DNA of 34,660 bases from ANME-2 cluster archaeon (lineage in GTDB: Archaea > Halobacteriota > Methanosarcinia > Methanosarcinales > Methanocomedenaceae): assembly GCA_023544495.1 (NCBI GenBank), contig JAMJFV010000002.1, positions 1 to 34,660 on the forward strand, read 5' to 3'. Both the position numbers and the translations under genes were made by a program. Positions 3,139-34,660 of this stretch are shown here, in pieces. The notes under the pieces were generated by a model. It saw only the letters and a list, made by a program, of their open reading frames with translations, was not told the DNA's origin and searched no databases. Position 1 is the stretch's first letter. Every line of letters starts with the position of its first letter.

Positions 3139-3141
3139 ACA

Positions 3142-15914: not shown

Positions 15915-15918
15915 CAGG

Positions 15919-17371: not shown

Positions 17372-17659
17372 ATGCAAAAAATGACTTTTGAACAGAATAT
17401 GGAAGCCATGAGTAAGATGACTCCTGAAGAAAGAGTAGCAAAAGTGGGGGAACTTACGAAGATTTGCATCTGTGCTGACTGCCCTACTTATGTTGGCACG
17501 GGAGAAAAGAGCTTATTATTCTGTGCAACCGAAAAAAGTAAAATAATAAAAAAAGAGAAAGGCTGTATCTGTCCGGGTTGCCCTGTTTATGAGAATATGG
17601 GTCTGAGATGGGATTACTATTGCACCAGAGGTTCTGGTAAAGAACAGGCTGGGAAATAA
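17372..17659 (+). CDS. DUF2769-type cysteine-rich protein
   Basis: ICICADCPTY...LLFCA....KGCICPGCPVY....DYYC matches the DUF2769 pattern as I remember it. SD site ggggtgaaaatATG. Confidence 0.7.
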   Translation: MQKMTFEQNMEAMSKMTPEERVAKVGELTKICICADCPTYVGTGEKSLLFCATEKSKIIKKEKGCICPGCPVYENMGLRWDYYCTRGSGKEQAGK

Positions 17660-17666
17660 TAACAGC

Positions 17667-18896: not shown

Positions 18897-18917
18897 CATC
18901 CATGCAGGAAATAAAAT

Positions 18918-19215
18918 GCAGATTTTGATACCTGTCTTGTTCTCCATGCCGAACATTCTTTCAACGCATCCACGTTTGCTGCGGGGTGGTTGTATCAACC
19001 CGGGTAGACATGTATTCATGCGTTGGCACCGCACTGGGTGCGCTTTCGGGTGAACTCCACGGCGGCGCCAATACTCAGGTGATGAAAATCTCTTTGAAAT
19101 TGATAATGCATTGATTCTTTACGGCATTTCAGAAAGACTGGCGGAAAGAACCGGAGATGCAAAATGGTTCGAGCTATCAAGAAAGATCGAAAATGTGGTA
19201 AGGGAATACGCCTAA
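18918..19215 (+). pseudogene. Citrate synthase relic (about 100 codons spread over three frames)
   Basis: Three reading-frame pieces: ADFDTCLVLHAEHSFNASTFAAG; VVVSTRVDMYSCVGTALGALSGELHGGANTQVMK; ..FEIDNALILYGISERLAERTGDAKWFELSRKIENVV. They match the citrate synthase blocks L.LHADHE.NAST.AARVV.ST..D.YS....A.GAL.GPLHGGAN..V. The GFGHRVY region and both termini are missing. Confidence 0.7.
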
Positions 19216-19239
19216 AATTTACATTCGCCGCCTTTCATT

Positions 19240-20607
19240 TCAGTATACCGATACAGATTTGATGTTCATGAATTCATAGAGCCCGAATTTAGAGAGCTCT
19301 CTTCCAATACCGCTTTTCTTCACTCCCCCGAAAGGAAGGCGCGGGTCGGACTTGACGAGTGAATTTACAACTACAACGCCTGCTTCAATCTCTTTTGCAA
19401 GACGAAGTGCTTTGTCCCTGTCCTCGCTCCATATACTTGCCCCAAGCCCAAGCTCTGATTCATTAGCCACTTTTATCGCGGAAGACTCATCTTTCACTGG
19501 AATTACAGGCGCCACAGGACCAAAGGTCTCCTCCTTTAACACCTTCATTTCCTGTGTTACATTTGAAAGTACGATAGGAGAATAGAAGAACCCATTCTTT
19601 TGAAGTCTTCCTCCCTCAAGCAGAGCTTTTGCTCCTTTCGATAAAGCATCCTTCACCTGCTCTTCAAGGAGTTCTATCTGCTCCTCCCTCACAAGCGGGC
19701 CTATATCAGTATCAGGATCCATAGGGTCGCCGACTTTAAGGTTAGAAGCATGCTCAACAAATTTTGTGGTAAACTCTTCCGCTATACTTTCTTCGACTAT
19801 GAAGCGTTTTGCGGCGATACAGCTCTGACCTGCATCGAGAAACCTGCTGGCAACAGCAATCTTCGCAGCTTTTTCAATATCGGCATCCGCAAGAACAATG
19901 AAAGGATCGCTTCCACCAAGTTCGAGGACGAACTTTTTCATGTTCCGCCCGCAAACCTCTGCCACCTTCTGTCCTGAGGAAACACTCCCTGTCAAGGATA
20001 CTGCGTCTATCTCCTTTCTCTTGATAAGCGATGATGCAGTTGATCCATCTATCAGTAATGTCTGGAAGACCCCGTCGGGAAAACCTGCCTCTGAAAAAAT
20101 CTTTTCGAGTTCAAGTGCGCATAAGGGAACGTAGCTTGAATGTTTGAGCAATACAACATTCCCGCCTGATAGTGCCGGGGAAGCGAAACGCAAAGCCTGC
20201 CAGAATGGAAAGTTCCAGGGCATGATACACAGTATCGTTCCACGCGGTTCAAATGAAACATACGCTTTCTGTGCATCTGTTTCCACGATCTCATGCTCCA
20301 AAAACCGCTCAGTATTCTGCGCGAAGTACTCAAGAGCCCATGCGCATTTTTCAACCTCGGGTATTGATTCTTTTATGGGTTTACCCATTTCCGATGTGAT
20401 AATTTCACCAAGTTCCTTCTTCCGTCTTCGCAGCACATTCGCAGCGTTTGTAAGATATTCTGCCCTGTCAGAGATATCCAGGTTCTTCCATTCTGAAAAG
20501 GCATTCCTGGACTTTCTAACTGCTTCGTTTATCTTTTCCTGTGAATAAAGTTCGAATTCCCTGTTAATGTCCCCTGTGGCAGGGTTAATAGAGACCATCT
20601 TTTTCAT
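19240..20607 (-). CDS. NAD(P)-dependent aldehyde dehydrogenase, succinate-semialdehyde dehydrogenase-like
   Basis: 455 aa. Contains SINPATG..., LELGGSDPFIV (catalytic Glu region), AGQSCIAAKRF (catalytic Cys) and EETFGPV. Confidence 0.9.
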   Translation of the reverse strand: MKKMVSINPATGDINREFELYSQEKINEAVRKSRNAFSEWKNLDISDRAEYLTNAANVLRRRKKELGEIITSEMGKPIKESIPEVEKCAWALEYFAQNTERFLEHEIVETDAQKAYVSFEPRGTILCIMPWNFPFWQALRFASPALSGGNVVLLKHSSYVPLCALELEKIFSEAGFPDGVFQTLLIDGSTASSLIKRKEIDAVSLTGSVSSGQKVAEVCGRNMKKFVLELGGSDPFIVLADADIEKAAKIAVASRFLDAGQSCIAAKRFIVEESIAEEFTTKFVEHASNLKVGDPMDPDTDIGPLVREEQIELLEEQVKDALSKGAKALLEGGRLQKNGFFYSPIVLSNVTQEMKVLKEETFGPVAPVIPVKDESSAIKVANESELGLGASIWSEDRDKALRLAKEIEAGVVVVNSLVKSDPRLPFGGVKKSGIGRELSKFGLYEFMNIKSVSVY

Positions 20608-20611
20608 TGTT

Positions 20612-23386
20612 TCAACTCCTTTTATTACTTAATATATTTCTCAGGAATGTATGCAGGATGCCGCCATTTCTATAAAATTCCATTTCAATTGGTGAGTCCA
20701 GTCTTGCCATGACGTTAAATTTCTTTTCTTTTCCATTTTCATCTCTTGCAACCACTTGTAGCTCTCCCCCCGGCTCCATGGTACTTATGCCCAGGATATT
20801 CAATGTTTCACCTCCCTTGATGCCCAGCCCATCTGCGTTCTCCTCTTTCATGAACTGCAGCGGCAGAACGCCCATTCCCACGAGGTTGCTCCTGTGGATA
20901 CGCTCAAAGGATTCAGCTATTACCGCGCTGACCCCAAGAAGACATGTGCCCTTGGCAGCCCAATCGCGGGAACTGCCTGTGCCGTATTCTTTCCCTGCTA
21001 TGATGACCAGAGGGATGTCATTCTTTTTGTAAAGCATCGCTGCATCGTAAATTGTCATCTCTTTTCCAGAAGGAAAATAACGAGTCCATCCTCCATCTTT
21101 ATCAGGAACCAGCCTGTTCCTGAGATTTATGTTTCCAAATGTTCCCCGCATCATTACCTCATGATTTCCCCTCCTTGACCCGAAGGAATTGAAATCTTTC
21201 GGAGCCACCCCACAGGATATCAGATACTGTCCTGCAAGAGAATCTTGAGAAAATTCCCCGGCCGGGGAAATGTGATCCGTGGTGATGCTGTCTCCCATAT
21301 ATGCAAGTACACGCAGACCCCTCAAGTCGCCCTTTTCAGGAAGCTTTACCAGGAAATCCTTGAAGAAAGGAGGCTCCTGGATATATGTTGATCCGCTGTC
21401 CCATTCATAGAGTTTGCCGGAAGGGACTTTAAGATTCTCCCATAGCTCTGTGCCGCCTGATATCTCTGAATACTGTTCAAACAAGTGAGGGCTGATGGTG
21501 TTTTTTATAACCTGCCGGATTTCCTCCTGATCTGGCCAGATATCGTTTAGATATACAGGCTCGCCATTCGGGTCGTATCCGATGGGTTCTGTCTTAAGAT
21601 CGATATCTACAGTACCAGATATAGCATATGCTACCACCAATGGAGGCGAGGAAAGGTAATTTGCTTTGACGAGCGGGTTAATCCTGCCCTCAAAATTACG
21701 GTTTCCACTTAATACCGAAGCGACTATCAGATCATCTTCTTTCACCGCCCTGGCAATGTTCTCCGGGATCGGACCGCTGTTGCCTATGCATGTCGTACAT
21801 CCATATCCCACGAGATGGAATCCCAGAGCCTCAAGATAAGGCATGAGTCCTGAGTTCACAAGGTATTCGCTGACAACACGCGAACCCGGAGCAAGGCTCG
21901 TTTTAACATATGGCTTGACCTTGAGTCCTCGCTTTACAGCGTTTTTTGCGAGAAGACCCGCTCCGATCATCACAGAAGGGTTTGAAGTGTTGGTGCATGA
22001 GGTTATGGCTGCGATTACTATAGAGCCGCTTTTTACCGGGACTTTCATCTCATATTTTGCGTCAAGCTCTTCCCTTCCAGTATGTTCATGCTCGACCCTG
22101 AAGCTTCCCCCCTCCCCCAGCCAGCGGTGATATTCATGATCCGCTTCTACCTCGGTTTTTTTACGGAGAAACGTCTCCTCCATGGCCTTATGGAAACTTG
22201 CTTCCATTTCATCAAGAGGTATACAATCCTGAGGTAGTTTCGGTCCAGCAAGGCTTGGTTCAACGGTGCTCATGTCAAGTTCCAATATCTCGCTAAACAG
22301 AGGTTCGGGACTTTCATCGGTGCTGAAGAGACCCTGCTCAATTGCATATAATTTAACCAGATTAACGTGCTCCTTTTTCCTTCCCGTAATCAGGAGATAC
22401 TTTAACGTTTCATCATCGATTGGAAAGAATCCCACAGTTGCGCCGTATTCGGGAGCCATATTTGAGATGGTAGCCCTTTCGGGCAGGCTCAATGTGCTCA
22501 AACCTGGCCCGTAAAATTCAACGAATTTGCCCACAACTTTGTGCATCCTTAATATCCGGGTAATGGTAAGAACAAGATCGGTGGCCGTCACTCCATCCTT
22601 CAATTCACCATAAAGCCTGAACCCCACAACTTCAGGAACAGGCATGTGGTATGGCTGGCCCAGCATAACCGCTTCTGCTTCTATCCCTCCAACACCCCAT
22701 CCCAGCACTCCCAGGCTATTTATCATCGTGGTATGGGAATCCATCCCGACAAGGGTATCAGGATAAGCGACAGGTTCGCCGTTCACTCTCTTGACCTGTA
22801 CCACTGATGCAAGATATTCAAGATTTACCTGATGGACTATTCCTCTGCCCGGCGGAACGACACGAAAATTATCAAAAGCCTGCTGCCCCCATCGAAGAAC
22901 GGCATACCTCTCGCGGTTCCGCTCAAGTTCCTTTTTCTCATTATAAGCACTGGCGTACGAGGTGCCGTAATAATCCACCTGGATGGAATGGTCAATAACC
23001 AGGTCTGCTGGTATAACAGGATTGATCTTTGCCGACTCGCCCCCAAGCCTCTGAACGGCCGACCTCATGGCAGCCAGGTCAACCACTGCGGGAACTCCTG
23101 TGAAATCCTGCAGAAGCACCCTTGCAGGAATAAAAGGTATTTCGCGCTCAACTCTATTTTTTGGATCCCATCCTGCTAATGATTCAACATCCTTTTCGGT
23201 TATAATTCGCCCATCCAAATGCCGCAAGAGCGCTTCAAGCAGTATCCTGATGGAGTATGGAAAGAGAGAGATTTTTCCTAACCCCATCTCCTCAAGTCTG
23301 CTGAGGCGGTAGATTGCTACACGACCCCTGCCAGTATCGATAAAATCTTTAACCCCAAATGGATTCATATCAGCACTCATATCCAT
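20612..23386 (-). CDS. acnA: Aconitate hydratase A (AcnA/IRP type)
   Basis: 924 aa. Contains LPYSIRILLEALLR, DHSIQVD, GMDSHTTM, ITSCTNTSNP, GCTTCIGNSG and the swivel domain GKEYGTGSSRDWAAKG. Confidence 0.95.
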   Translation of the reverse strand: MDMSADMNPFGVKDFIDTGRGRVAIYRLSRLEEMGLGKISLFPYSIRILLEALLRHLDGRIITEKDVESLAGWDPKNRVEREIPFIPARVLLQDFTGVPAVVDLAAMRSAVQRLGGESAKINPVIPADLVIDHSIQVDYYGTSYASAYNEKKELERNRERYAVLRWGQQAFDNFRVVPPGRGIVHQVNLEYLASVVQVKRVNGEPVAYPDTLVGMDSHTTMINSLGVLGWGVGGIEAEAVMLGQPYHMPVPEVVGFRLYGELKDGVTATDLVLTITRILRMHKVVGKFVEFYGPGLSTLSLPERATISNMAPEYGATVGFFPIDDETLKYLLITGRKKEHVNLVKLYAIEQGLFSTDESPEPLFSEILELDMSTVEPSLAGPKLPQDCIPLDEMEASFHKAMEETFLRKKTEVEADHEYHRWLGEGGSFRVEHEHTGREELDAKYEMKVPVKSGSIVIAAITSCTNTSNPSVMIGAGLLAKNAVKRGLKVKPYVKTSLAPGSRVVSEYLVNSGLMPYLEALGFHLVGYGCTTCIGNSGPIPENIARAVKEDDLIVASVLSGNRNFEGRINPLVKANYLSSPPLVVAYAISGTVDIDLKTEPIGYDPNGEPVYLNDIWPDQEEIRQVIKNTISPHLFEQYSEISGGTELWENLKVPSGKLYEWDSGSTYIQEPPFFKDFLVKLPEKGDLRGLRVLAYMGDSITTDHISPAGEFSQDSLAGQYLISCGVAPKDFNSFGSRRGNHEVMMRGTFGNINLRNRLVPDKDGGWTRYFPSGKEMTIYDAAMLYKKNDIPLVIIAGKEYGTGSSRDWAAKGTCLLGVSAVIAESFERIHRSNLVGMGVLPLQFMKEENADGLGIKGGETLNILGISTMEPGGELQVVARDENGKEKKFNVMARLDSPIEMEFYRNGGILHTFLRNILSNKRS

Positions 23387-23778
23387 TTATTCGCTTTTAA
23401 CTCCTTCCCCAGACCTCATTATTCTATCTATCAAACCATACTCCACTGCATCCTCTGCTGACAAGAAGAAGTCCCTGTCCGTATCTTTCTCAATGACCTC
23501 TATGGGTTGCCCCGTGTGATGGACCAGGATTTCATTGAGATGTTCTTTGACCCTTGCCATCTCTTTTGCCTGAATAGCGATATCCGATGCCTGTCCCTGT
23601 GCGCCCCCGAGGGGCTGGTGAATCATCACCCTTGCATTGGGAAATGCCATCCTTTTTCCCTTTGCTCCCGCTGCCACACCTGTGAGGAGTATTATCTGGT
23701 CGTCCAGCAGGCGGGAATAAATATCCAGCGTATGCGGGGGGTTTGCTCTGATACATAAAGCATTTTTGGAATTACCAT
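23387..23778 (-). pseudogene. clpP: ClpP protease subunit relic: N-terminal frameshift plus an internal deletion removing the catalytic Ser region
   Basis: aaaggaggacaaaacaATG gives [15 protein letters not shown]. The frame is then lost at a C6 run. It resumes as [17 protein letters not shown] joined directly to [22 protein letters not shown]...[20 protein letters not shown]. By comparison with the canonical family layout as I recall it, roughly 75 residues that normally contain the GxAASMG serine are absent. Confidence 0.75.
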
Positions 23779-23812
23779 TGTTTTGTCCTCCTTTAATGTT
23801 TAAATTAATATA

Positions 23813-24262
23813 TCACATCAAACTGAAATCCATTTTTGAAATGATGAGATTATTGCAAACTGACATGATCCCACTATAGAAAATAATACCCAAAAATAGC
23901 GCTGTGAACCATAAAAGAAAAACAATTCTCATGGGGATAATGGTCTTCCTGATCAATCTATCAAATGCAAAGAATACGCCTCCGAACAATGCCAGCGATC
24001 CAATAGCCGCATGCAGAATTAGCAAATTCCCGGTAATATCAAGAAATAACGCCCCAGTCAGGAGATGAGATATTATAGAATATCCCATCCATATCAAAGA
24101 TACGAATCCCAAAAAGACAGCGAACCTTGCCAATTTAAAATGTTTTGAAAGATCGTTTCTTTTTACAAACACACTGGCAGAAAAAAGGATAATAAAACCT
24201 GCAATCTGAAAGACTAAGGTCATATCTGCAAATGAGCTTGCCACAGTTCCAAGAAAACCCAT
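23813..24262 (-). CDS. Four-TM membrane protein with conserved His residues (same layout as 8625..9035; DUF420-like, unconfirmed)
   Basis: Four hydrophobic helices, with KRNDLSKH after TM1 and LILHAAIG in TM3. It lies 35 nt downstream of the P460-like gene. Confidence 0.5.
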   Translation of the reverse strand: MGFLGTVASSFADMTLVFQIAGFIILFSASVFVKRNDLSKHFKLARFAVFLGFVSLIWMGYSIISHLLTGALFLDITGNLLILHAAIGSLALFGGVFFAFDRLIRKTIIPMRIVFLLWFTALFLGIIFYSGIMSVCNNLIISKMDFSLM

Positions 24263-24297
24263 ACAGACTTCGTCCTTTTAAATTTCCGGATGCATTT

Positions 24298-24825
24298 CTA
24301 TCTAAGGTCACTTGACCATACGTAATCATTGGTTTTGTCTTTGAAGATATCTTTTGGCAGAGCGTGGCAGTCGATGCATCCTTCTACCTTCCCCTCGGCA
24401 TCTATCGTGCCATCTGGCTGGTACTTAGCCCAGAACCAGTCATTGTGAGCCGGATCGTAGCCTTTTTCTTTGTACATAACTGTTATTGCGGCCAGTTTTT
24501 TGTCAGGACCATAGTTTTCTTTTACTATTATGCTCTCTTCAGGCAGGATTCCTTTTTTGCCTTCTATTGCTGCAAAAGCGTCATCGTTCACGTATGTTGT
24601 CAGAAAAGCACCATGCGGTTCGCTTGGTTTTTCTGTTGACTTTGGATATATTTCACCCGTGCCGGGCCACTTCTTCCAGTTTTTATAGTTCTCTTTTATT
24701 ATAAAGTCGTATACAGATTTCCCATCAGCCTTGAGTTCTGTCTCTGGTGGCGCACTTACACAGCCCAGAAAAATTGACACCATAAATATAGCCAATATTG
24801 CGTATGCAATGCTTTTCATTTCCAT
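24298..24825 (-). CDS. Cytochrome P460 / c'-beta family haem lipoprotein
   Basis: Lipobox SIFLGC. HGAFLTTYVNDDAF...LPEESIIVKE...ITVMYK....NDWFWAKY.PDG...G....CIDCH (a single CxxCH near the C-terminus) follows the P460-family pattern. The GGGAG SD site favours the ATG at 24825; the track start is 24840. Confidence 0.7.
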   Translation of the reverse strand: MEMKSIAYAILAIFMVSIFLGCVSAPPETELKADGKSVYDFIIKENYKNWKKWPGTGEIYPKSTEKPSEPHGAFLTTYVNDDAFAAIEGKKGILPEESIIVKENYGPDKKLAAITVMYKEKGYDPAHNDWFWAKYQPDGTIDAEGKVEGCIDCHALPKDIFKDKTNDYVWSSDLR

Positions 24826-25036
24826 AATTTCTACTCCCATCTATTTATTCATTGAGATGACATATATAACTATCTTTCTCGAACTATTAATTGACCTTCC
24901 ATTCCTAAATCCCTGTGATTTGCCACTTCTCACCACATCTTAGAATATTCCTGATTTATCCGCAACAAATTCCATAACCTGATTTTTCCCGGAAGACGCC
25001 ACGTTAACCCTTTGATCATATCCTTCCACAAACAGG

Positions 25037-25423
25037 TCATGTGTACCCTGCATGCCCATAACTCTCGTAAAAAGGCTCGAAAATGATAACCTCATCTCCC
25101 TCGTTTATGATTGCAAGCATGGCAGCCATTAAAGCTTCCGTGGCTCCGCAAGTTACCGTAATTTCAGTTTCTGGGTCAGCTTCGATGTGATTGTATTTGA
25201 GGGCTTTTCGAGAGATTGCATTTCGGAGATCTTTTCCGCCCCACGTGATGGAATATTGATTGTAGTCTTCCAAAATTGCAGATGCGGCAACGTGCTTTAT
25301 CTCATCCGGAGCCGGAAAGTCAGGAAATCCCTGGGCAAGGTTCACGGCATGACGTGTTACTGCAAGCCGGGACATGTCGCAAATTACCGATTCGGTAAAA
25401 TGTTCCAGTCTGTGAGATAACAT
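25037..25423 (-). pseudogene. Class I/II aminotransferase, N-terminal fragment of about 125 aa only
   Basis: INLAQGFPDFPAP....QY....G...LR.AI......VTCGATEAL......INEGDEVIIFEPFYESY is a typical YbdL/KAT-type N-terminus. The ORF then stops. The PLP-lysine half is not found in any frame downstream. Confidence 0.7.
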
Positions 25424-25426
25424 CGA

Positions 25427-26125
25427 TCAGTACCCCGGAAAATTTTCACTATGTATCATAGCGTCTTGAATTTTCAATGTCTTAAGAATTTCAATTGAAC
25501 TTGTTACCAGGGACGGTGGACCGCATACATAGAAAACACATTCTTTATAATCGGGTATCTCTTCTTCAATAATCTGAACGTCTATATGGCCTCTCCTTCC
25601 TTTCCATTTCTCATCCGGCTGGGACAGTGTATGGATTACCCTGAGGTTTTGATTTGCCTTTTCAAGGCGGTCCAACTCTTCCTTGAAAACTATGTTTTCT
25701 TCATTCCTGTTTCCGAATAAAAAAGTAATACGGGAGTTCATTCCCTTATCCGTGCAGTATTTAATCATGCTCCTGAGAGGCGTTATGCCGATGCCCCCTG
25801 TTATCATCACTACTCTGGGATATTCGCCTTTGAAGGTAAAATCTCCATAGGGAGCATTAAGGTATGCCCAGTCTCCGATTTTGAGCATGTCAAGAGCGAC
25901 TGAGAACTCATGGTCTGTGATCTTTTTTGTGAATTCAATGAACTCTTTTTCTGTCGGACTGCTTGATATCGTAAAATGCTTTGTGATTTTTTTACCCTCG
26001 TTCAGAATTGTTACGAATAAAAATTGACCGGGATCGTAGTCAAACCCCTTCGGTCTCCTGAACCTGAAGCTCTTTACATCTGGTGTCCGTTTTATTATCT
26101 CTTCCACTCTGGTTTCAAATTTCAT
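25427..26125 (-). CDS. FNR-like FAD/NAD(P)-binding oxidoreductase (PyrK/sulfhydrogenase-gamma type without the C-terminal Fe-S domain)
   Basis: Contains VKSFRFRRP..FDY.PGQFLFV, HFTISSSP (RxxS-like FAD site) and ITGGIGITPLRSM (the NAD(P) GGxGxxP motif). Confidence 0.8.
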   Translation of the reverse strand: MKFETRVEEIIKRTPDVKSFRFRRPKGFDYDPGQFLFVTILNEGKKITKHFTISSSPTEKEFIEFTKKITDHEFSVALDMLKIGDWAYLNAPYGDFTFKGEYPRVVMITGGIGITPLRSMIKYCTDKGMNSRITFLFGNRNEENIVFKEELDRLEKANQNLRVIHTLSQPDEKWKGRRGHIDVQIIEEEIPDYKECVFYVCGPPSLVTSSIEILKTLKIQDAMIHSENFPGY

Positions 26126-26128
26126 AAA

Positions 26129-26332
26129 TCAACCAACCTCTTTTCTACTGCTATCGAACTCTGCCGCTTCCTTCGCTAAAAAGTACCCCATCACCGTTCT
26201 GATGCTGACAGTAGCACCAAGGAAGAGAATCTCTTCCCGGCTGGGAGCAACAATCGTCCTCAAGATGTATGTGGACAAGAGCCCAGGGGGAAAACCTGAC
26301 TTTTTTGACCTTTTCTTAATGGGTACGACCAT
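26129..26332 (-). CDS. Hypothetical small protein (67 aa)
   Basis: It fills the gap between the GltB-like and FNR-like genes (18 nt and 3 nt spacers). No recognisable motif; it may not be translated. Confidence 0.3.
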   Translation of the reverse strand: MVVPIKKRSKKSGFPPGLLSTYILRTIVAPSREEILFLGATVSIRTVMGYFLAKEAAEFDSSRKEVG

Positions 26333-26350
26333 TGTATATGCCTCTATTCC

Positions 26351-27835
26351 CTAAACATGTGTGATCTCCGTATGATTTGAGATCTCAGAATTTGTCGTAC
26401 ACAGATCCTTTATGCTCAATTTATGCACATCATCATTTCCCGTCAATCGTGCAAAATCCTTTAATTCCTCCGTGGAAACCCTTAAAAAATTTTCCAATTT
26501 CTTGGCAGAGTACTCAACTTTTAACCTTCCCCTTAATTCCGGGTTATGTGTAGTGACGCCGACAGGGCATTTACCCGTGTCGCACAGCCTGTACTGCTGG
26601 CATGCGCATGCCATCAGCGCTGCAGTTCCTATTGCAACAGCGTCAGCCCCTAAAGCTAACGCTTTAATGAAATCCGAGGACACCCGAAGACCTCCTGTGA
26701 TAATAAGGGATATGTCTTTTATCCCTTTCCTGTCAAGATATTTCCTTGCCCTGTATAGGGCAAAAACAGTAGGTACTGACGTTGCCTGTTTTACGAACCT
26801 GGGCGAAGCCCCGGTTGCGCCCGGTCTTCCATCGATGGTTATAAAATCAGGTCCCGCATAGGTCGCTATTTCCAGGTCATCTTCTATATGACCTGCTGCG
26901 ATTTTTATCCCGATGGGCTTTCCATCGGATTTTTCTCTTAGCCAGTCCACTTTCTTTTTCAGATCATCCCTGTTTCTTATGTCTTCAAAATGAGACGGAC
27001 TCACAATATCGGTCCCTTCAGGGAAACCTCTGATTTCCGCAATCTCCTGGGTCACCTTCTCTGCAGGCAAATGACCTCCCATGCCTGGTTTTGACGACTG
27101 ACCGATCTTTATTTCTATGGCATCCACTTTCCTGAGGTTCTCATCAGTGACGCTGTACCTGTTGGGCACGTATTCAAAAATGTATCTATAGGCATTGTCA
27201 AGAGACTCCTTCATAATCCCGCCTTCTCCTGAACCCATGGCGGTTCTGGCAGCAGCGCTCCCTTTTGCTAAAGCAGTTTTAACTTCTTTTGACAGAGCGC
27301 CAAAAGACATATGGGTTACATAAATAGGTGTTTCGATTATAAGAGGATGCTTCGCCGCAGGACCTATTGTGGTTCTGGTATTCACAGGCTCGTCTTTATT
27401 TAAGGGAATTTTCGCCAGTTGAGCACCTTTTATCAGAATGTCATCCCATGAGAGCACATTTTTTGTCGTCCTCATTGGTTCGATGATTGACTCCCCGGTC
27501 ACGGAAATCGTATGGATATCCGCCATGTATATTTCCAGGTCATCCCTGTCCCGTTTCCATTCTGCCAGATATCCGCCCAGATCAATTTTAGCAGTGGAAA
27601 TTGTCACTTTATTTTTGGCTCCGCAATGGGGGCAGGTCATGATCTCATCTATCTGCGCAATCTCCTCTTCCTCTTTGACAGGCTTTAAGTGTGATTTATC
27701 CGACGCACAAATGGGGCACTTCCACTCATCAGGGAAGTCTTCAGGTTTTGTGCCGGGTTTTATCCCTGTAAGCGAGTTCCCCCGCGTATCATCATATTCG
27801 AAAACATTGCAAACATCGCATCTGTATTGTGTCAT
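26351..27835 (-). CDS. Rubredoxin-domain + zinc-ribbon + glutamate synthase FMN/Fe-S domain (GltB domain-2-like) protein
   Basis: N-terminus YRCDVCNVFEYDD...DFPDEWKCPICAS, then TCPHCGAKNK. The core has SSKPGMGGHLPAEKV, ITIDGRPGATGASP, TGGLRVSSDFIKALALGADAVAIGTA and the cluster motif CDTGKCPVGVTT. Confidence 0.85.
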   Translation of the reverse strand: MTQYRCDVCNVFEYDDTRGNSLTGIKPGTKPEDFPDEWKCPICASDKSHLKPVKEEEEIAQIDEIMTCPHCGAKNKVTISTAKIDLGGYLAEWKRDRDDLEIYMADIHTISVTGESIIEPMRTTKNVLSWDDILIKGAQLAKIPLNKDEPVNTRTTIGPAAKHPLIIETPIYVTHMSFGALSKEVKTALAKGSAAARTAMGSGEGGIMKESLDNAYRYIFEYVPNRYSVTDENLRKVDAIEIKIGQSSKPGMGGHLPAEKVTQEIAEIRGFPEGTDIVSPSHFEDIRNRDDLKKKVDWLREKSDGKPIGIKIAAGHIEDDLEIATYAGPDFITIDGRPGATGASPRFVKQATSVPTVFALYRARKYLDRKGIKDISLIITGGLRVSSDFIKALALGADAVAIGTAALMACACQQYRLCDTGKCPVGVTTHNPELRGRLKVEYSAKKLENFLRVSTEELKDFARLTGNDDVHKLSIKDLCTTNSEISNHTEITHV

Positions 27836-27854
27836 TTATATCTACTTCCTCGAA

Positions 27855-28844
27855 TCACCTGAAACCGATATATAATAAGGCGATCGCAAGAATGACAAAA
27901 AGCGCTGAGAGCACTTTTTCCAGAACTGCGGTATTCATTCTTGCTGCGACATACGGTGCAAGCTGACCGCCGATTATGACCGCAGGAACTGTCATGGCAA
28001 TAATGTTCCACGGTGTCTCTACACCCCCAGTTGCAGACGCCCTTAAAAGATGTGCGGTTGACGCCACAATGGCTGTTCCCGCCACGATAATATGATTTGT
28101 TCCGACTCCTACTTTAGCCGGAATGCCCGAGATGATCATTGAAACCACGCCCATTTCCCCGATTCCGAACCCCGACACCCCCTGGAATATACCTCCCAGA
28201 GAATACCCGAACAGCCTGGTCCTGTATGCACACCTGCAGTAATTGTAAACTTTTCCATTCCTGTCTGTAAGTGTTACATTTTCTGGAGTTGCCTTATGTT
28301 GATGTGTGACGGTAAGGCTTTTTTTGGATGCCAGTTCTTCCCCAAATGCCCTGATCCTTTCAGCATGCCCTAAAGAATAGACTGAAATAAGCAATGCAAA
28401 GCTTATGAGAAAATAGATGATTTTTTCCGGGAAATAGAAGGATACAACTGAAGAAATTATAACCACAGGCACCGCTCCGGTAAGAGAGCGAAAAGCCATT
28501 TTCTTATCTACGAGGCCAAATCGCATAAAGGCAAAAGTGGAACTTGATATCCCGAAGGATTCGGTTATCAATCCCAGCATCACGCTCTGCCCCGGAGTGA
28601 GCCCGAATGCAAGTGCAGGGAATACGAGTGCAAAAAAAGGGACAAAAAGGGCCGCGCCGCTTATGCCCACCGTATTTACGACAGTTGCGATCACGATGGC
28701 AACAGGGAACATCCACCAGAATTCAGTCCAGTAACCAGCATCACTCTTGACAATACCTGTCAGGATAAAAAGAAAAATCGGGATTATGAGAAGAATTAAA
28801 TAATTCTCGTATTCAAGTGCTTTATCTGATATTCGCTTTAGCAT
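27855..28844 (-). CDS. TauE/SafE (TSUP) family anion permease
   Basis: A multi-TM protein with two internally similar halves: GISGAALFVPFFALVFP..., GLITESFG, and GFGIGEMGVVSMI in the second half. A roughly 50-aa hydrophilic loop with Cys/His residues links them. Confidence 0.8.
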   Translation of the reverse strand: MLKRISDKALEYENYLILLIIPIFLFILTGIVKSDAGYWTEFWWMFPVAIVIATVVNTVGISGAALFVPFFALVFPALAFGLTPGQSVMLGLITESFGISSSTFAFMRFGLVDKKMAFRSLTGAVPVVIISSVVSFYFPEKIIYFLISFALLISVYSLGHAERIRAFGEELASKKSLTVTHQHKATPENVTLTDRNGKVYNYCRCAYRTRLFGYSLGGIFQGVSGFGIGEMGVVSMIISGIPAKVGVGTNHIIVAGTAIVASTAHLLRASATGGVETPWNIIAMTVPAVIIGGQLAPYVAARMNTAVLEKVLSALFVILAIALLYIGFR

Positions 28845-28929
28845 GAAATCGTTACTTTTTGATACTACAAACTCTCATTTATCCCGCCAGAGTGCGATTG
28901 TAATTTAACTTTCACTCTTCTCAAGCTTC

Positions 28930-29034
28930 TTATTTGGACTTTTCATGTTCTTTTTTTGCGTGCTCCATTAGCTCTGATTCAGACTCAAATGTAGCACCGC
29001 ACATATTACACTTGTATTGCTTTTCTTCAGCCAT
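28930..29034 (-). CDS. Micro-protein (34 aa) with a classical C2H2 zinc-finger pattern
   Basis: Not in the ORF track (under 60 aa). SD site gggaggtgacaagatATG. MAEEKQYKCNMCGATFESESELMEHAKKEHEKSK fits Y-x-C-x2-C-x3-F-x5-L-x2-H-x4-H exactly. Confidence 0.55.
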   Translation of the reverse strand: MAEEKQYKCNMCGATFESESELMEHAKKEHEKSK

Positions 29035-29129
29035 ATCTTGTCACCTCCCTTTGGCAGCAGTAGCTTTTCATTGCGATATATTATATTCCCTCACTGATAT
29101 TTAACGCACATTTGCATTAAGTCCTATTT

Positions 29130-29363
29130 TCACGGTGCTTTCCCAATATCACAGAAGTACATATCCTTCAGCTTATATCTGGCATATACCATACAAGCAG
29201 GGCATTTACAGCCTTTTTTTACGATTTTTTCTGGCGATTTACCCCTTGCACAGAACAGCATTGGCTGCTGGGGATACGGCAGACTTGGACAGGTTCCGCA
29301 GTAATTCATGCAGATAGCCAGATTTTCCTTTGTATCATCAACTGGCATTTCAAATACCTCCAA
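29130..29363 (-). CDS. DUF2769-type cysteine-rich protein (second copy)
   Basis: ICMNYCGTCPS....MLFCA.....KKGCKCPACMVY......MYFC shows the same Cys spacing as 17372..17659. Confidence 0.7.
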   Translation of the reverse strand: MEVFEMPVDDTKENLAICMNYCGTCPSLPYPQQPMLFCARGKSPEKIVKKGCKCPACMVYARYKLKDMYFCDIGKAP

Positions 29364-29375
29364 AAGAATTAAAAA

Positions 29376-29888
29376 TCACATCAGCATTTTCTTAAACATA
29401 TTCCGGACCATCATTCTCTTCAGGATGAAATAATCCTGTGTAGCAGCCATCATCGCACGCTTTTCCATCATCTTCCTATCTTCAGGCCACGCTGACATTA
29501 TTTTCTTCAAAGCTCCCATCAGGATTTCTCTCTTTTCTTTTGGAAGTTTTGTAATTTGATCGGTCCTGGTTTTAACAACCTTGATCCTGTCTTCTTCAGA
29601 CAGTTCTGATATCCCGTCGAGCATGTCGGTTATTGCGGCTATCCTTTTGTCTTCTGGCAGAACGGAAAATTGCTCCATCCGTGCCCCCAGGATCTGACGT
29701 CTGTCTTCCTCGGGTTTTGATGCCAGCATTTGCATCATGTCGGTTATTTGTGCGAGCTTTTCAGCTTTTGCCTTGCGTTCCTGGCATGCAGGGCACTTCT
29801 CAAAATGTTCTTCGAAAGACGCTGCATCTTTACCGGCACATTCTTCACATTCTTTTGCTAACTTTTCTAATTCTTCTCTTGCAGTCAT
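29376..29888 (-). CDS. Helical-repeat protein with an N-terminal CxxC...CxxC site, hypothetical
   Basis: CEECAGK...FEKCPACQ, then repeated about 25-aa helical units marked by KPEEDR / LPEDKR / LSEEDR / LPKEKR / WPEDRK. It ends 12 nt before the DUF2769 gene. Confidence 0.55.
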   Translation of the reverse strand: MTAREELEKLAKECEECAGKDAASFEEHFEKCPACQERKAKAEKLAQITDMMQMLASKPEEDRRQILGARMEQFSVLPEDKRIAAITDMLDGISELSEEDRIKVVKTRTDQITKLPKEKREILMGALKKIMSAWPEDRKMMEKRAMMAATQDYFILKRMMVRNMFKKMLM

Positions 29889-29955
29889 AAAATAATTCGC
29901 CCCTAAGTGATATTTGCAGTTTTTATGATATATAGTTTCTTATATTATTTTTTCC

Positions 29956-30036
29956 TCAGCAATCCTTGAATTTCTTTCCTGATCCACATGTGTCATCCGG
30001 TGCAAGGGTCTTTTTTGGTGTGCAACATCCAGCCAT
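29956..30036 (-). CDS. Micro-ORF (26 aa) with a SEC-C-like metal-binding motif
   Basis: SD site ggaggtaagacaaatATG. MAGCCTPKKTLAPDDTCGSGKKFKDC; the CGSGKKFK.C part resembles the SecA C-terminal SEC-C motif. Coding status is unproven. Confidence 0.4.
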   Translation of the reverse strand: MAGCCTPKKTLAPDDTCGSGKKFKDC

Positions 30037-30172
30037 ATTTGTCTTACCTCCATTTATGCATCTTTTTTTGACATTGGTACAAATTACATCATACATGATA
30101 ACTCTCTGTATGTCGTGAGTAAAATAAGCACAAGCAAACTGAAAAATTCAAAACATTATTGGGAGGTAAAAT

Positions 30173-30532
30173 ATGGCTGAACCAAAAATATTGATAGTAT
30201 ATGCATCGAGAACAGGTAACACGGAAAAACTCGCACAGGCGGTCGCTGAAGGGGCAAGGAGTGCTGGCGGGGTCAGTGTCGAGTTGAAGAGAGCAAGGGA
30301 TACTAAACCCTCAGATGCAGATGCTGACGCTTTTGCATTTTGGTCTCATTCGGCTTTTGAATATATGGCAGGGGAGCTTAAAAGCCTATTTGAAGATTTT
30401 TATATTGTAAGGGATAAACTGGCAGGCAAACCTGTACTGCTTTTCACCACAGGACAGGGAGGGCAGAGTTCGACTCTGGCATCGATAGACAGGGACGTGG
30501 GTGTATTCAATCCGGGTCAGGACTGGTATTAA
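30173..30532 (+). CDS. Flavodoxin-family protein (short, 119 aa)
   Basis: SD site gggaggtaaaatATG. KILIVYASRTGNTEKLAQAVAEG is the FMN phosphate-binding loop T/S-x-T-G-x-T. The C-terminal third looks divergent or possibly truncated. Confidence 0.7.
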   Translation: MAEPKILIVYASRTGNTEKLAQAVAEGARSAGGVSVELKRARDTKPSDADADAFAFWSHSAFEYMAGELKSLFEDFYIVRDKLAGKPVLLFTTGQGGQSSTLASIDRDVGVFNPGQDWY

Positions 30533-30533
30533 A

Positions 30534-31178
30534 TTATTTAATTATTTTAATAAATCCATCTCTGATTTTATGCCCTATTTCATTTGCTATCTCAATGACA
30601 TCCTTCTGGTCTTCTATAGTCGTATATTTATCCTTCGAAGGCACAGCACCTTTGCTGAACAATAACGGAACTGCGCTTATCTTGCAGGTACCTCCATATC
30701 CGCATGAAAGACATGAGACGTTCCCGGTTCCGCTGAGCTTACCGATGACATTAATTCCTTCCATTTCCATAAAAGCAGCAATCTGATCCATGGCATGATC
30801 TACACTTGGTATTCCTCGTCCAATCCCGACTGCCACAGCTACTCCAATTTTACCTTTATTTAGCATTTTTTGATGATGCATGGAGTACATCCGTTCTGTC
30901 AGCATCTTAGTTCTTGAGTCAAGAGTGCCGTAAGTAGGATAGCCACCAATAATTAGAGCAGCACATTCTTTGATCTTATTTTCGATTATATACCAGTCGT
31001 CCTGCTGCTTGCAGATGTTGTCCCCGGCACAGCCAAGACATGCCCTGCATGGATGGATATCGTACTCTGAAAGTTTAATAAATTCATAATCAAGGCCTGT
31101 AGCTTCAAGCACTGTTTTAATCAGCCTGTCGGTATTGCTGTTTTTAACCGGACTCCCGCTTATTCCTAACACTTGCAT
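30534..31178 (-). CDS. isf: Iron-sulfur flavoprotein (Isf family, NADPH-dependent FMN reductase fold)
   Basis: MQVLGISGSP.KNSNTD, the compact cluster motif CRACLGCAGDNIC (CX2CX2CX5C), and IIGGYPTY. Confidence 0.85.
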   Translation of the reverse strand: MQVLGISGSPVKNSNTDRLIKTVLEATGLDYEFIKLSEYDIHPCRACLGCAGDNICKQQDDWYIIENKIKECAALIIGGYPTYGTLDSRTKMLTERMYSMHHQKMLNKGKIGVAVAVGIGRGIPSVDHAMDQIAAFMEMEGINVIGKLSGTGNVSCLSCGYGGTCKISAVPLLFSKGAVPSKDKYTTIEDQKDVIEIANEIGHKIRDGFIKIIK

Positions 31179-31906
31179 TTTGAATCGCCTGCTATCATTT
31201 TGCTGTTCTCTATTCTCTCTTTGATCAGCTTTCCGATCCTCTGCGCCTCAGCCATTACCAGGAGTTCATCCTTAACCGACCTGTAGCTTTTCAGGAATTT
31301 AGCAGAGCCATGTGCATATGGCTTGTTATCAGGGAGAAGTTCAAGATACCCCTTGTACGCCTCCTCAACGCCCAACTCCATGCCTGTCAGTTCTTTCGAG
31401 TAGGCATTCCAGACAGTATAATTGCATGTCTCACCCGGTCCGCAAACAAAACAGCACGGTGTTCCTTTGGCTGTCATGCTGCCTACTATTTCCATCCCTC
31501 CGGCACGAAGGGCATTTCCCATCCACTCTGCAACCATCTTTTCAGCAGCAACCCCTACAGCCACTGTCGCTACGATTTTTCCGCGCATCAGGAGTTTTAC
31601 ATGCCTCTTAGAATACAGCCTCTCTATAAACGCTTTCATAAAAGCGCTTGCAGCACCATAGTATGTTGGCGACCCGACCACGATAGCATCTGCTTCCATG
31701 ACTTTCTTTGAGAGCCACTTGAAATGATCGTTGAGGACGCATTCATTGGTCTGGACACATTTCATGCATGCTATGCAGGGACCTACATTTATTTCCGATA
31801 ATTTGACAAATTCAGTCTCTGCACCCGTAGCATCAAGTATTGCATTTATCAATGCATCAGTATTGCTATTCTCTGTGGGACTTCCACTCACTCCAAGAAC
31901 TTTCAT
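31166..31906 (-). CDS. isf: Iron-sulfur flavoprotein paralogue (Isf family)
   Basis: MKVLGVSGSP.ENSNTD, CIACMKCVQTNEC (CX2CX2CX5C), and VVGSPTYYG. It overlaps the downstream isf by 13 nt. Confidence 0.85.
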   Translation of the reverse strand: MKVLGVSGSPTENSNTDALINAILDATGAETEFVKLSEINVGPCIACMKCVQTNECVLNDHFKWLSKKVMEADAIVVGSPTYYGAASAFMKAFIERLYSKRHVKLLMRGKIVATVAVGVAAEKMVAEWMGNALRAGGMEIVGSMTAKGTPCCFVCGPGETCNYTVWNAYSKELTGMELGVEEAYKGYLELLPDNKPYAHGSAKFLKSYRSVKDELLVMAEAQRIGKLIKERIENSKMIAGDSKCKC

Positions 31907-31971
31907 TTCCTACACCTCTTCGAAATTAATTTTTTATCTAAGTAAGCGGTACAGCGAGTGAATCCAGGAAT

Positions 31972-32172
31972 TTATTGTAGCCTGTGAACAATTCCATCAC
32001 TCCAAGCACTTCTACGATCTGGCTCTCTGTAATCCCATCCGCAACCTGATTTGCATGTGGTATTTGCGCCGTCCGGGAATGCTGCAAGGAGTTGTTCCGG
32101 AGTCTTTATCGGGAACTTCCCACCTGCAAGTCCTCCAACGATCTGGGCATGGATTTCATCTTGGACGCTCAT
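31972..32172 (-). CDS. MTH865-like small protein whose C-terminal third appears replaced; possibly a relic
   Basis: [37 protein letters not shown] resembles the MTH865 family N-terminal half as I remember it. The tail [14 protein letters not shown]... does not. An AhpD/CMD-like tail is readable in another frame over the same bases. Confidence 0.4.
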
Positions 32173-32333
32173 GCTTCTTCCTCCAACATTGCTTTTATGT
32201 CACCTGTTGTTTTTGAGATCGGGCAGCCGGAACCATGTGTTTCACATTTGAAACATGCGCTCTTTACGGCAGCTAATGACTTTTGAGCTTCTTCTTTTGT
32301 CACACTTTTGTTTGTATATTTCCATTCAGGCAT
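32169..32333 (-). CDS. Small Cys-containing protein (54 aa), hypothetical
   Basis: Not in the ORF track. [54 protein letters not shown]. Its stop overlaps the next start (ATGA at 32169-32172). Confidence 0.4.
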
Positions 32334-32480
32334 TTATTTCACCTCAATAACAGATTGTCAGGTTATTTAGATATATTTAGCCGTCATAAAAATATACCAA
32401 CTACATTTTAATATACAAACATAACCTTCAAGGTTTTAATAGAAACCTTTTTAGCCTGATACGACAAAACAACTTCTCAT

Positions 32481-33230
32481 ATGGCTAATAAAAGAGAGAG
32501 TTCTCACAGGGAAATCCTCGAAATAAAAGAAAAGCTGTATGAGATGCACAATGACCTGAAAAGATTTATGGAGAAGTCAAGCCAGCAGCACCTTGAACAT
32601 GTTCTTTCAGGTTCCCGTACTAATTTTACGAATGCGATCATCGGGCATGTTCTTGACGATATCGAGGGAGGTCTTGAAAGTAATATGGTTAAAAAATGCG
32701 AGATGAGGGAGACTTGTAAATCAAACTTCACAGGATTCCTGCACAATAATGCAAACCTGATAAAACAGGATGAAGTTCATGAAGATGTTATTTTGAAAAA
32801 CCAGTCAGATTTAACCGATATGAGGAGCAATTCACCCTCGAAGCAGTGCGAAAAATGTTTTTCAAATGTCCAGAACCTCTTTGGAAAACAGATAAGTTTG
32901 ATGCGTTCTCTTCGAATCTATAATGCAAATGGAGAAAAAAAAGAGGAGATCCCCACTGTTCCAGAAGAATTCATAGTCGATGTATTTGAGCCACTATCCA
33001 ATAAACAACGCCTGCAAATACTGAAAGCAATAGCAATAGAAACAAAAACATTTTCTTCACTTTCAGAACTTACAGGGCTTCGCGGAGGGAATTTACTTTT
33101 CCATTTGCAGAAACTGCTTGACAGCGGAATGATCTTACAGCGCCATGAGCGGGGGGACTACATGATCACAGATAAGGGATTCAAGGTCTTGAGAAGTATA
33201 GGTGATATGTATTCCGTATTGAACTCTTGA
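32481..33230 (+). CDS. ArsR-type winged-helix regulator with a long Cys-containing N-terminal domain
   Basis: The C-terminal LSNKQRLQILKAIAIETKTFSSLSELTGLRGGNLLFHLQKLLDSGMI is an ArsR/SmtB-type HTH. The N-terminal 160 aa carries CEMRETC and CEKC. Confidence 0.7.
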   Translation: MANKRESSHREILEIKEKLYEMHNDLKRFMEKSSQQHLEHVLSGSRTNFTNAIIGHVLDDIEGGLESNMVKKCEMRETCKSNFTGFLHNNANLIKQDEVHEDVILKNQSDLTDMRSNSPSKQCEKCFSNVQNLFGKQISLMRSLRIYNANGEKKEEIPTVPEEFIVDVFEPLSNKQRLQILKAIAIETKTFSSLSELTGLRGGNLLFHLQKLLDSGMILQRHERGDYMITDKGFKVLRSIGDMYSVLNS

Positions 33231-33264
33231 AGTTATACATAGTATTCAATAATAAGGTGAAGTT

Positions 33265-33783
33265 ATGGATTCTTTGAATATTGAAAAGAAGATAGAATTC
33301 CAGACCGTGGAAGAACTTATGATGGCCCCCGAGCCTAATTTTAATGATGTCATACGATGCGTTTTTAAGATAAAGGATTATGAGATAGAGGTCTATTTTT
33401 ATCTTCTCGATCATCCCGAATCTACCATTTCTGAAGTATCAGAGTCTCTTAAAAAGGATAGAAGTTCTATCCAGCGTTCGATCCAGACATTAAAGGATAA
33501 AGGTATGATAAACCGAAAATTCAGGGTGTTCAGGGTGGGCGGTTTTACATACATTTACATTGCATTACCGCTTGAAGAAACAAAGAAAATCATGGAACGT
33601 GAGCTTCAAATCTGGTATAATATGATGAACGGACTTGTAACGAGTTTTGAAAAAAGTGGCTCATCGCTATTATGTATGGGTACTTATATCAGCGATGGCA
33701 CTACAACTGTATATGACGTAACTACCGGCGCTATGGCCACAGTAGATGGTTATATTCCGCATGCATCAGCAGTGATCTGGTAA
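33265..33783 (+). CDS. TrmB/MarR-like winged-helix regulator
   Basis: YEIEVYFYLLDHPESTISEVSESLKKDRSSIQRSIQTLKDKGMINRK is a TrmB-type N-terminal HTH. Confidence 0.6.
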   Translation: MDSLNIEKKIEFQTVEELMMAPEPNFNDVIRCVFKIKDYEIEVYFYLLDHPESTISEVSESLKKDRSSIQRSIQTLKDKGMINRKFRVFRVGGFTYIYIALPLEETKKIMERELQIWYNMMNGLVTSFEKSGSSLLCMGTYISDGTTTVYDVTTGAMATVDGYIPHASAVIW

Positions 33784-33785
33784 GG

Positions 33786-33814
33786 GGGAAAACATTTTTC
33801 CCTTTTATTTTTTT
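33786..33814 (+). terminator. Hairpin plus T-tract terminator candidate
   Basis: GGGAAAA-CAT-TTTTCCC is followed immediately by TTTTATTTTTTT, directly after the stop of the TrmB-like gene. Confidence 0.45.
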
Positions 33815-33871
33815 AAAATCGTGCTATGGAAAAATAACTGAAAGGGAAAGAAATAACAAGGAATGGTTTGA

Positions 33872-34228
33872 ATGATAAAAGTGGCGATTGTAATTTTAGC
33901 AGATATAGAAACGCATGAAGATACGGCAAGAGTTCACAATGCACTTCTTGCAGCAAAAGAATTCAAAGATGCAAAAGATGAATTTAAGCTCATCTTTGAT
34001 GGAACTGGAACCAAGTGGATTAAAGTGCTTTCTAAACCTGAGCACATGTTTCATGAACTATTTGAATCATTAAAGGGCAATTCTACCGAAGTTTGCAGCT
34101 ATTGCGCAGGGGCTTTTGGGGTCAAAGAGAGTGTAACGGCATCCAGCATTCCTCTGATAGAAGAATATGAGGGACACCCGAGCTTCAGGGAACTGCTGTT
34201 GAAAAGTTATCAGATAATTACATTTTAA
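33872..34228 (+). CDS. DsrE/DsrF-like family protein
   Basis: 118 aa. IKVAIVILADIETHED..R..NAL..A.E........KLIFDGTGTKW, with a later CSYC. The layout resembles small DsrE-fold proteins. This is a recollection-level match only. Confidence 0.6.
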   Translation: MIKVAIVILADIETHEDTARVHNALLAAKEFKDAKDEFKLIFDGTGTKWIKVLSKPEHMFHELFESLKGNSTEVCSYCAGAFGVKESVTASSIPLIEEYEGHPSFRELLLKSYQIITF

Positions 34229-34319
34229 AATAGCCAGTAGCACTTGTTCTGCATCTAGAGACATTCTCAATAACATTTATATGAAATAACATCTGTAATT
34301 GATATGCGGGGAATTTATT

Positions 34320-34481
34320 ATGTATAAAAAAGTGATAATACCTTTTTTAATCCTGTTCTCTTTCCTCATAATGGGATGTGTGGAAAAGACCCAAAACCCT
34401 GAGACTAAGGTTGTCAAGGAGAGGGACTTCTGGTTTGCGTGGTATGCATTCCATCCAGATACCACGATTTACTCAAGATAG
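34320..34481 (+). CDS. Small lipoprotein, hypothetical
   Basis: MYKKVIIPFLILFSFLIMGC has a signal peptide and lipobox. The ATG at 34320 is preferred over the track start at 34299. Confidence 0.4.
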   Translation: MYKKVIIPFLILFSFLIMGCVEKTQNPETKVVKERDFWFAWYAFHPDTTIYSR

Positions 34482-34544
34482 TACCTCACATGCAATGCAA
34501 TCAGGTAGATTAACATCGAAACCAAAAATCTCTGGAGCTGGATT

Positions 34545-34660
34545 ATGGTTAGTGACTCTGAAATAAAGGAAATATTGGAAAACTACAAAAATGTGGCAGT
34601 TGTGGGTCTGTCGCCTGAAAAAACAAAGTACAGCTACATAGTGGCTGAGTACCTGAAGGG
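34545..34660 (+). CDS. CoA-binding domain protein (YccU-like), 5' part; runs off the window
   Basis: MVSDSEIKEILENYKNVAVVGLSPEKTKYSYIVAEYLK matches the start of CoA_binding_2-type proteins (IAVVG.S....K.S..V..YL). Confidence 0.6.
   Translation, partial: MVSDSEIKEILENYKNVAVVGLSPEKTKYSYIVAEYLK

Follow-up and report, generated by a model that had tools for sequence, protein, structure and literature searches.

A 34-residue single C2H2 zinc-finger gene beside Cys-rich genes in an ANME-2 cluster archaeon

The finger gene and its neighbours

The window, by which we mean the whole stretch of DNA that was analysed (34,660 nucleotides of one contig), carries the features collected in Table 1. An open reading frame of 34 codons lies between the genes for a DUF2769 protein and a TauE/SafE-family permease. 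A previous sequence-only reading of this DNA had described such an ORF between these two genes, preceded by a Shine-Dalgarno (SD) site at typical spacing and missed by the ORF track because of its length cut-off. All of this is as described: the ORF exists, on the minus strand, and its absence is limited to that one track.

Table 1. Coordinates of the features of the finger locus
Feature	Position in window	Strand	Evidence and remarks
Single C2H2 zinc-finger gene, 34 aa	28930..29034	minus	Stop TAA at 28930-28932; ORF list, Pfam, AlphaFold2, Foldseek, purifying selection
Predicted zinc ligands of the finger	Cys9 29008-29010; Cys12 28999-29001; His25 28960-28962; His30 28945-28947	minus	
SD site GGGAGGTGA	29041..29049	minus	6 nt before the finger ATG; complementary to the 16S 3′ end of the same genome
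DUF2769 Cys-rich protein gene	29130..29363	minus	PF10967, 53.6 bits; immediately upstream of the finger
p170, 170-aa protein	29376..29888	minus	N-terminal C-x2-C-x10-H-x3-C-x2-C, helical repeats; first large gene of the trio
TauE/SafE-family permease gene	27855..28844	minus	PF01925, 85.3 bits; follows the finger after a gap of 85 nt
Rubredoxin-fused GltB-like FMN enzyme gene	26351..27835	minus	Pfam Rubredoxin and Glu_synthase; next after TauE, same orientation
Inverted repeat AGAGTG ... CACTCT	28889..28918	minus	12 nt past the finger stop
Methanoperedens-like block carrying the finger	17300..34660		~18 kb; 83-94% nucleotide identity to Methanoperedens loci

There is an in-frame TGA two codons upstream of the finger ATG, and this ATG is therefore the only possible start. 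Upstream of it, GGAGGTGA pairs perfectly over 8 nt with the 16S 3′ end of the same genome, GGATCACCTCCT, and no other of the 32 window genes inspected has so long an SD match. The SD region is conserved, with 12-13 of the 15 bases upstream of the ATG kept in every orthologue, while sequence farther upstream decays; beyond the SD the flank drops to background, amounting to 30/85 identities for the most distant paralogue. As far as sequence can show, the finger would be translated from a strong SD of its own. The 16S 3′ ends found on two contigs of the genome (C92 and C322) share their last ~48 nt and have different downstream spacers, so that the genome has two rRNA operons or else the bin holds two populations.

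The DUF2769 protein likely starts at the ATG at 29348, which has GGAGGT upstream and gives 72 aa, and not at the TTG that the mechanical ORF list uses; the gene calls in five related loci are also 72 aa long. The N-terminal motif of p170 is kept in homologues that are 55-69% identical. It includes the H-x3-C-x2-C and upstream Cys of the ZAS-type zinc anti-sigma factors, with which p170 was compared, while the Pfam matches of p170 are all below threshold (zf-HC2 17.1 bits against 22.2, RsrA 16.2 against 62.5, and DUF3106). Ahead of p170 the window has a further Cys-rich micro-ORF of 26 aa (29956-30036, minus strand). For its 26-aa counterpart in FZMP01000085 a Pfam SEC-C match is on record, and the cluster may thus carry two zinc micro-proteins.

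The intergenic gaps around the finger are only 48-95 nt long, and no T-rich terminator was seen beside it in the window, suggesting that the finger is probably co-transcribed with its neighbours. Loci L021, L023, L064 and L038 retain the inverted repeat that follows the finger stop, and L065 retains part of it; it persists even beside flanks that are otherwise diverged, and in L067 its place is taken by a T-rich run. It is a candidate for an RNA end, a processing site or a stabiliser. The TauE gene is truncated, split or lost in four loci (L021, L022, L062 and L064), all of which have an intact finger, and in L021 the rubredoxin-fused GltB-like gene comes straight after the finger.

Most copies of the finger come straight after p170 and DUF2769, and in Methanoperedens the three usually precede a TauE permease and a rubredoxin-fused flavoenzyme. 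This trio, p170-DUF2769-finger, recurs at loci L021-L025, L062-L065, L067, L068 and L084, and at coordinates in G316, G326, G329 and G331. A close form of p170 (at least 89% identical) is present in 6 of the 7 finger-bearing Methanoperedens species representatives, and genomes with a p170 of 69-76% identity are without the finger. A Methanocomedens locus has the 170-aa protein and DUF2769 and no finger ORF. The reverse is also found: in Ca. M. nitroreducens ANME-2d (G294) both finger copies lie away from p170 and DUF2769, and similarity to the window is confined to 28865-29061, a stretch of ~190 bp that consists of the SD, the ORF and the inverted repeat, while another genome (G313) has a finger without p170. 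The link between the finger and p170/DUF2769 is not obligatory.

Consensus, predicted fold and selection

The translated peptide has the pattern aromatic-x-C-x2-C-x3-F-x5-L-x2-H-x4-H. Its ligand spacing, C9-x2-C12-x12-H25-x4-H30, falls within the classical C-x2-4-C-x12-H-x3-5-H, and the hydrophobic core positions are occupied by Tyr7 (Phe in L067), Phe16 and Leu22. This agrees with the earlier claim of an exact C2H2 consensus, and a search with finger profiles gave scores above the curated Pfam cut-off for zf-C2H2_6 (PF13912, 29.3 bits against 25) and zf-C2H2 (PF00096, 26.9 against 25.2), with PF13894 remaining below (25.2 against 27). A scan of the complete 2.34-Mb genome in six frames gave E values of 9.8e-6 and 6.3e-5 at the finger site, and a finger cut-off is passed at just one further site, from which it is concluded that the match is not due to chance. 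PF13912 was above its cut-off in 0 of 14 control genomes.

AlphaFold2, run with an alignment of eight rows, predicts a β-β-α finger with a pLDDT of 85, in which residues 7-8 and 15-16 form strands and residues 19-29 a helix. Nearly all of the best 50 PDB matches listed by Foldseek for this model are classical C2H2 fingers (probability 0.80-0.99, rmsd 0.3-4.1 Å); the E values are weak (0.05 or greater) because the finger is so short. Matches by sequence in the PDB are to fingers of ZNF568, PRDM9, CTCF and similar proteins. A phmmer search of 1.84 billion representative sequences gave 33,234 matches at E ≤ 1e-3, the best 150 of which are exclusively long multi-finger proteins, with 9-36 matching stretches in the best of them. 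These matches confirm the consensus and are uninformative on small prokaryotic relatives. In a classical finger one Zn(II) is held by Cys2His2, and by analogy we infer that one Zn(II) would be held here by Cys9, Cys12, His25 and His30 around a core of Phe16 and Leu22.

Conservation was analysed on 11 distinct DNA versions of the gene, collected from the contigs of the 90% cluster of the window protein (which has four further members, each of 33 aa), from loci found via the p170 neighbour, and from a profile search of Methanoperedenaceae. All encode 33-34 aa, and the sole length difference is an in-frame indel of 3 nt, giving one extra GAA (Glu) in the window. Cys9, Cys12, Phe16, Leu22, His25 and His30 are invariant in all 11, and the codons for invariant residues do vary (TGT/TGC, TTT/TTC, CTA/TTA, CAC/CAT). 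In every copy the frame is closed at least two codons ahead of the ATG, and the antisense frame is interrupted by stops in 3 of the 11.

The first five relatives were uninformative for dN/dS, because the ORF and its flanks are near-identical in them, and more diverged copies were used later. Variable sites at codon positions 1, 2 and 3 number 11, 4 and 20, respectively. The window copy differs from that of L065 by 10 synonymous and 5 non-synonymous changes, and pN/pS in diverged pairs is 0.04-0.28. Summed over four phylogenetically independent pairs, 17.7 changes are synonymous and 13.3 non-synonymous, against a chance expectation of 17% synonymous (binomial p = 3e-7). The sequence-only reading had named loss of the frame in related genomes as the result that would overturn it and dN/dS as a further check; frame, length, SD and ligands are kept in the 11 versions, and the excess of synonymous change points the same way. 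On these comparisons, the finger is very probably a real C2H2 micro-protein gene under purifying selection.

Some indication of what an unselected copy looks like is given by a decayed paralogue in Ca. M. nitroreducens Mnv1 (FZMP01000084; L066:4861-4953, plus strand), which lies behind a second p170-DUF2769 pair. It has an internal duplication of the CG knuckle (ICGICG), and has lost the helix and both His. This decay and the shortness of the ORF are what could be said for a spurious frame, or for a dead relic of a larger multi-finger gene, but such an origin is extremely improbable given the selection statistics, the conserved SD, the constant length, the invariant ligands, the frame closure upstream of the ATG in all copies and the antisense stops, and the spurious-ORF reading is contradicted already by the conservation tests.

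Distribution, related micro-fingers and origin of the block

The ORF had been described as unannotated, which it is not. NCBI nr contains the 34-aa protein letter for letter, and in Candidatus Methanoperedens orthologues at least 90% identical carry the RefSeq name "C2H2-type zinc finger protein". The gene belongs to a known domain family and is annotated correctly, and its orthologues have names. All loci with a named source come from Candidatus Methanoperedens (strain ANME-2d JMIY01, Mnv1 FZMP01, several MAGs, and METP1). A profile search of Methanoperedenaceae found true orthologues in 7 of 49 Methanoperedens species representatives, with 1-3 copies each. In 40 relatives of the window genome, 7 of them from its own genus, the search found no orthologue, and the best match among the 40 was at chance level (E 0.006).

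A pattern scan of 241 million metagenome records gave one further true locus and one chance match. Neither a set of 50,697 phage records nor IMG/VR gave a match to the back-translated pattern, and a viral origin for the finger was rejected on the basis of these collections. A search of the literature on Methanoperedens and zinc fingers, and on oxidative-stress transcriptomes, found nothing on the finger gene.

Nor is a lone finger of this kind as exotic as had been hinted. A Pfam scan of 301 Methanosarcinia genomes gave matches in 17, mostly in open frames of 34-50 aa. When these micro-fingers were combined with the orthologues into a custom profile, one-finger ORFs similar to that of the window (32-41 aa) were matched in 104 of 392 Methanosarcinia genomes, or about a quarter, a figure that is an upper bound for one family because the profile catches any C2H2 finger. 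The matches are distributed as 56/105 in family f7 (one member of which is labelled Methanothrix by RefSeq), 33/177 in Methanosarcinaceae and 8/53 in Methanoperedenaceae, and ~85% of them lie in frames of 77 aa or less. A single-finger group in Euryarchaeota had also been described in 2013: about 20 single-finger ZNF proteins, placed as the sister group of the viral AFV1p06 family and without the viral extension (Guilliere et al. 2013, PMC3541406).

Within this wider set, micro-proteins of Methanothrix, Methanohalobium and Methanosalsum (WP_348305291.1, ADI73146.1, AEH60917.1) are annotated as C2H2 zinc-finger proteins. Like the window protein they have 32-41 aa, one finger, an acidic N-terminus and a Lys-rich tail, and they are 31-61% identical to it; the Methanothrix group is 47-61% identical to it and has H-x3-H where the window protein has H-x4-H. 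Their neighbours differ from those of the window finger, being genes for GH15 glucoamylase and glucokinase. In five loci from these three genera (L035, L042, L043, L014 and L049) the micro-ORF adjoins a conserved GH15 glucoamylase gene, which is 64-71% identical between the two families, and in two more Methanothrix loci it adjoins a glucokinase gene, so that there is a recurrent pairing with glycogen genes.

The window genome has a second C2H2 finger (G000:C180:822-1358, minus strand; locus L030), at the C-terminus of a 178-aa protein for which two membrane helices are predicted and whose linker is strongly acidic. Three genomes of the same genus (G003, G004 and G005) have similar frames, of 185-202 aa, that match the same finger profile as this protein.

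The window itself is a mosaic. Positions 1-16251 match same-genus genomes G003 and G005 at 81-89% nucleotide identity, and the block that carries the finger is absent from both of them. The block is much closer to Methanoperedens than are core genes, which are only 65-67% identical between the window family and the Methanoperedens family. GC content is not discriminating (genome mean 0.452, sd 0.03; block 0.434). Contamination of the whole bin by Methanoperedens was tested using ~130 kb of Methanoperedens loci and rejected, only the contig of the window (C222) matching at 85% or more. A tRNA at the block junction, which could have marked an integration site, was sought with ARAGORN and Rfam and rejected, none being found by either. 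The block has two possible origins, either transfer between families or a chimeric contig joined in the gene-poor stretch at 16.25-17.3 kb.

Two dispersed repeats were observed in passing. An element of ~160 bp at 6972-7134 has dozens of copies in the same-genus genome G005. The junction has a GC-rich repeat of ~51 bp (16493-16543) that recurs in G003 and G005 and in a Methanoperedens genome, G026; within the window genome a second copy of the junction stretch is absent.

Possible roles and comparison with known systems

Classical C2H2 fingers are the commonest DNA-binding module of eukaryotes, and their prokaryotic history is thin. The predicted recognition helix of the window finger looks ill suited to reading DNA sequence-specifically: the DNA-contact positions -1, +2, +3 and +6 are Ser18, Ser20, Glu21 and Glu24. 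The window copy is acidic overall (pI 5.6), and the net charge at pH 7 swings from -2.3 in the window copy to +3.7 among orthologues. The acidic contact residues and the swinging charge favour an adaptor over a DNA-binding regulator, as does the genomic link to Cys-rich upstream products, and the finger is probably not a sequence-specific transcription factor. The reading that we prefer is of a real 34-residue C2H2 gene that would act as a zinc-stabilised binding adaptor in a redox-type cluster, to which as a whole we give a probability of roughly 0.55. The adaptor role by itself, which is drawn from charge and context, is tentative. The finger would bind a partner protein, most plausibly the Cys-rich p170 or DUF2769 products or the rubredoxin enzyme; alternatively, it could bind nucleic acid without sequence specificity.

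The first alternative to such an adaptor is a sequence-specific DNA-binding regulator of the cluster, in which a short operator would be recognised by the helix, perhaps in oligomeric form or jointly with the ArsR-type regulator close by. In its favour, reading DNA is what classical C2H2 fingers most often do, DNA-bound fingers head the PDB matches, and the C-terminal tail is Lys-rich. A single finger, on the other hand, contacts only 3-4 bp. The contact residues are those described above, the window copy is negatively charged and its charge is not conserved, and the gene is found in unrelated neighbourhoods. There is a precedent in AFV1p06, a single finger from an archaeal virus that binds and shifts DNA (PMC3541406), but the window protein has only a four-residue tail after its last His, with no extension like that of AFV1p06 or GAGA and no further basic stretch. 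Taken together, this makes a DNA-binding regulator unlikely.

The related micro-fingers beside glucoamylase and glucokinase genes make a context-independent role possible, such as general binding of nucleic acid. On such a view the finger would belong to a housekeeping-like family across Methanosarcinia, a zinc micro-protein associated with RNA, ribosomes or nucleic acid in general and unrelated to its neighbours. The breadth of the one-finger set, particularly in f7, whose proteins are 47-61% identical to the window protein and lie in other contexts, is in keeping with this, as are weak matches to zf-C2H2_jaz and zf-met, but these matches are below their cut-offs. The orthologues proper are patchy, occurring in a minority of Methanoperedens species and in none of the window genus, which indicates an accessory gene and not a housekeeping gene, and the H-x4-H spacing differs from that of the Methanothrix group. 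We therefore regard a general binder as rather improbable.

Of about the same standing is a composite proposal, and it too must be called improbable, in which the finger is the newest and separable part of a zinc/thiol redox-sensing module made up of p170, DUF2769 and the C2H2 protein, works by protein-protein contact and not by reading DNA, and arrived when the whole ~18-kb block moved recently from the ANME-2d (Methanoperedens) lineage into a genome of the Ca. Methanocomedens family.

A shade less probable again is that the finger is itself part of a stress module and responds to metals or to thiol redox state. Oxidants or metals would be sensed through the zinc occupancy of the finger together with the HxxxCxxC of p170 and the eight Cys in DUF2769, and the flavoenzymes or the permease downstream would be switched in response. 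The neighbourhood is suggestive, having the SEC-C-like micro-ORF, p170, DUF2769, rubredoxin fusions, FMN reductases, a flavodoxin and ArsR, and distant p170 homologues keep the C-x2-C-x10-H-x3-C-x2-C motif and have weak similarity to RsrA and zf-HC2. Every family match of p170 is below cut-off, however, classical C2H2 sites are usually structural rather than sensory, and the finger is also found away from p170.

As an annotation result the gene is ordinary, since the protein and its orthologues are already public under the correct domain name. Its interest lies elsewhere: in methane-oxidising archaea a minimal C2H2 version of 33-34 residues appears to be a gene under selection, a broader and patchy set of one-finger micro-proteins in Methanosarcinia includes it, and the chemistry of its helix is unlike that of a DNA reader. 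The family would be a cheap target, using a synthetic peptide or a Methanosarcina host, for finding out what use a cell that has no tandem arrays makes of a solitary finger.

The window protein shares the full consensus and the predicted fold with the classical eukaryotic fingers (PF00096/PF13912; ZNF568, PRDM9, CTCF). It differs from them in being a lone finger, without a tandem array or TGEKP linker, and in having acidic contact residues, H-x4-H in place of the commoner H-x3-H, and a prokaryotic SD. With the Ros/MucR proteins it shares Cys2His2 coordination of zinc in a prokaryote. Ros has C-x2-C-x9-H-x3/4-H within a β-β-β-α-α domain of ~58 residues, whereas the window protein has a spacing of x12 in a total of 34 aa, and there is no Ros/MucR profile among its Pfam matches. 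Two Haloferax proteins of the C(P)XCG type, HVO_0758 and HVO_2753, are likewise archaeal zinc micro-proteins (<70 aa), with regulatory or adaptive roles; they have two C(P)XCG knuckles (Cys4), whereas the window protein has one CxxCG (CNMCG), its second ligand pair being the His of HxxxxH.

The AFV1p06/fusellovirus family resembles the window protein as a single classical finger in an archaeal setting. AFV1p06 is longer, at 59 aa; its last His is replaced by Glu, and its fold continues into an extension with conserved residues, made up of a loop, a 3-10 helix and a third strand (PMC3541406), none of which is present in the window protein, where the chain stops 4 residues past His30. The closest relatives are the Methanoperedens RefSeq orthologues (WP_394295708.1 and WP_241763358.1 / KCZ71540.1, ANME2D_02273), which have 33 aa, are 70-97% identical, have the same SD and ligand spacing, and mostly have p170-DUF2769 neighbours. 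Compared with them, the window copy has an extra Glu and an acidic net charge, and is found in a genome of another family.
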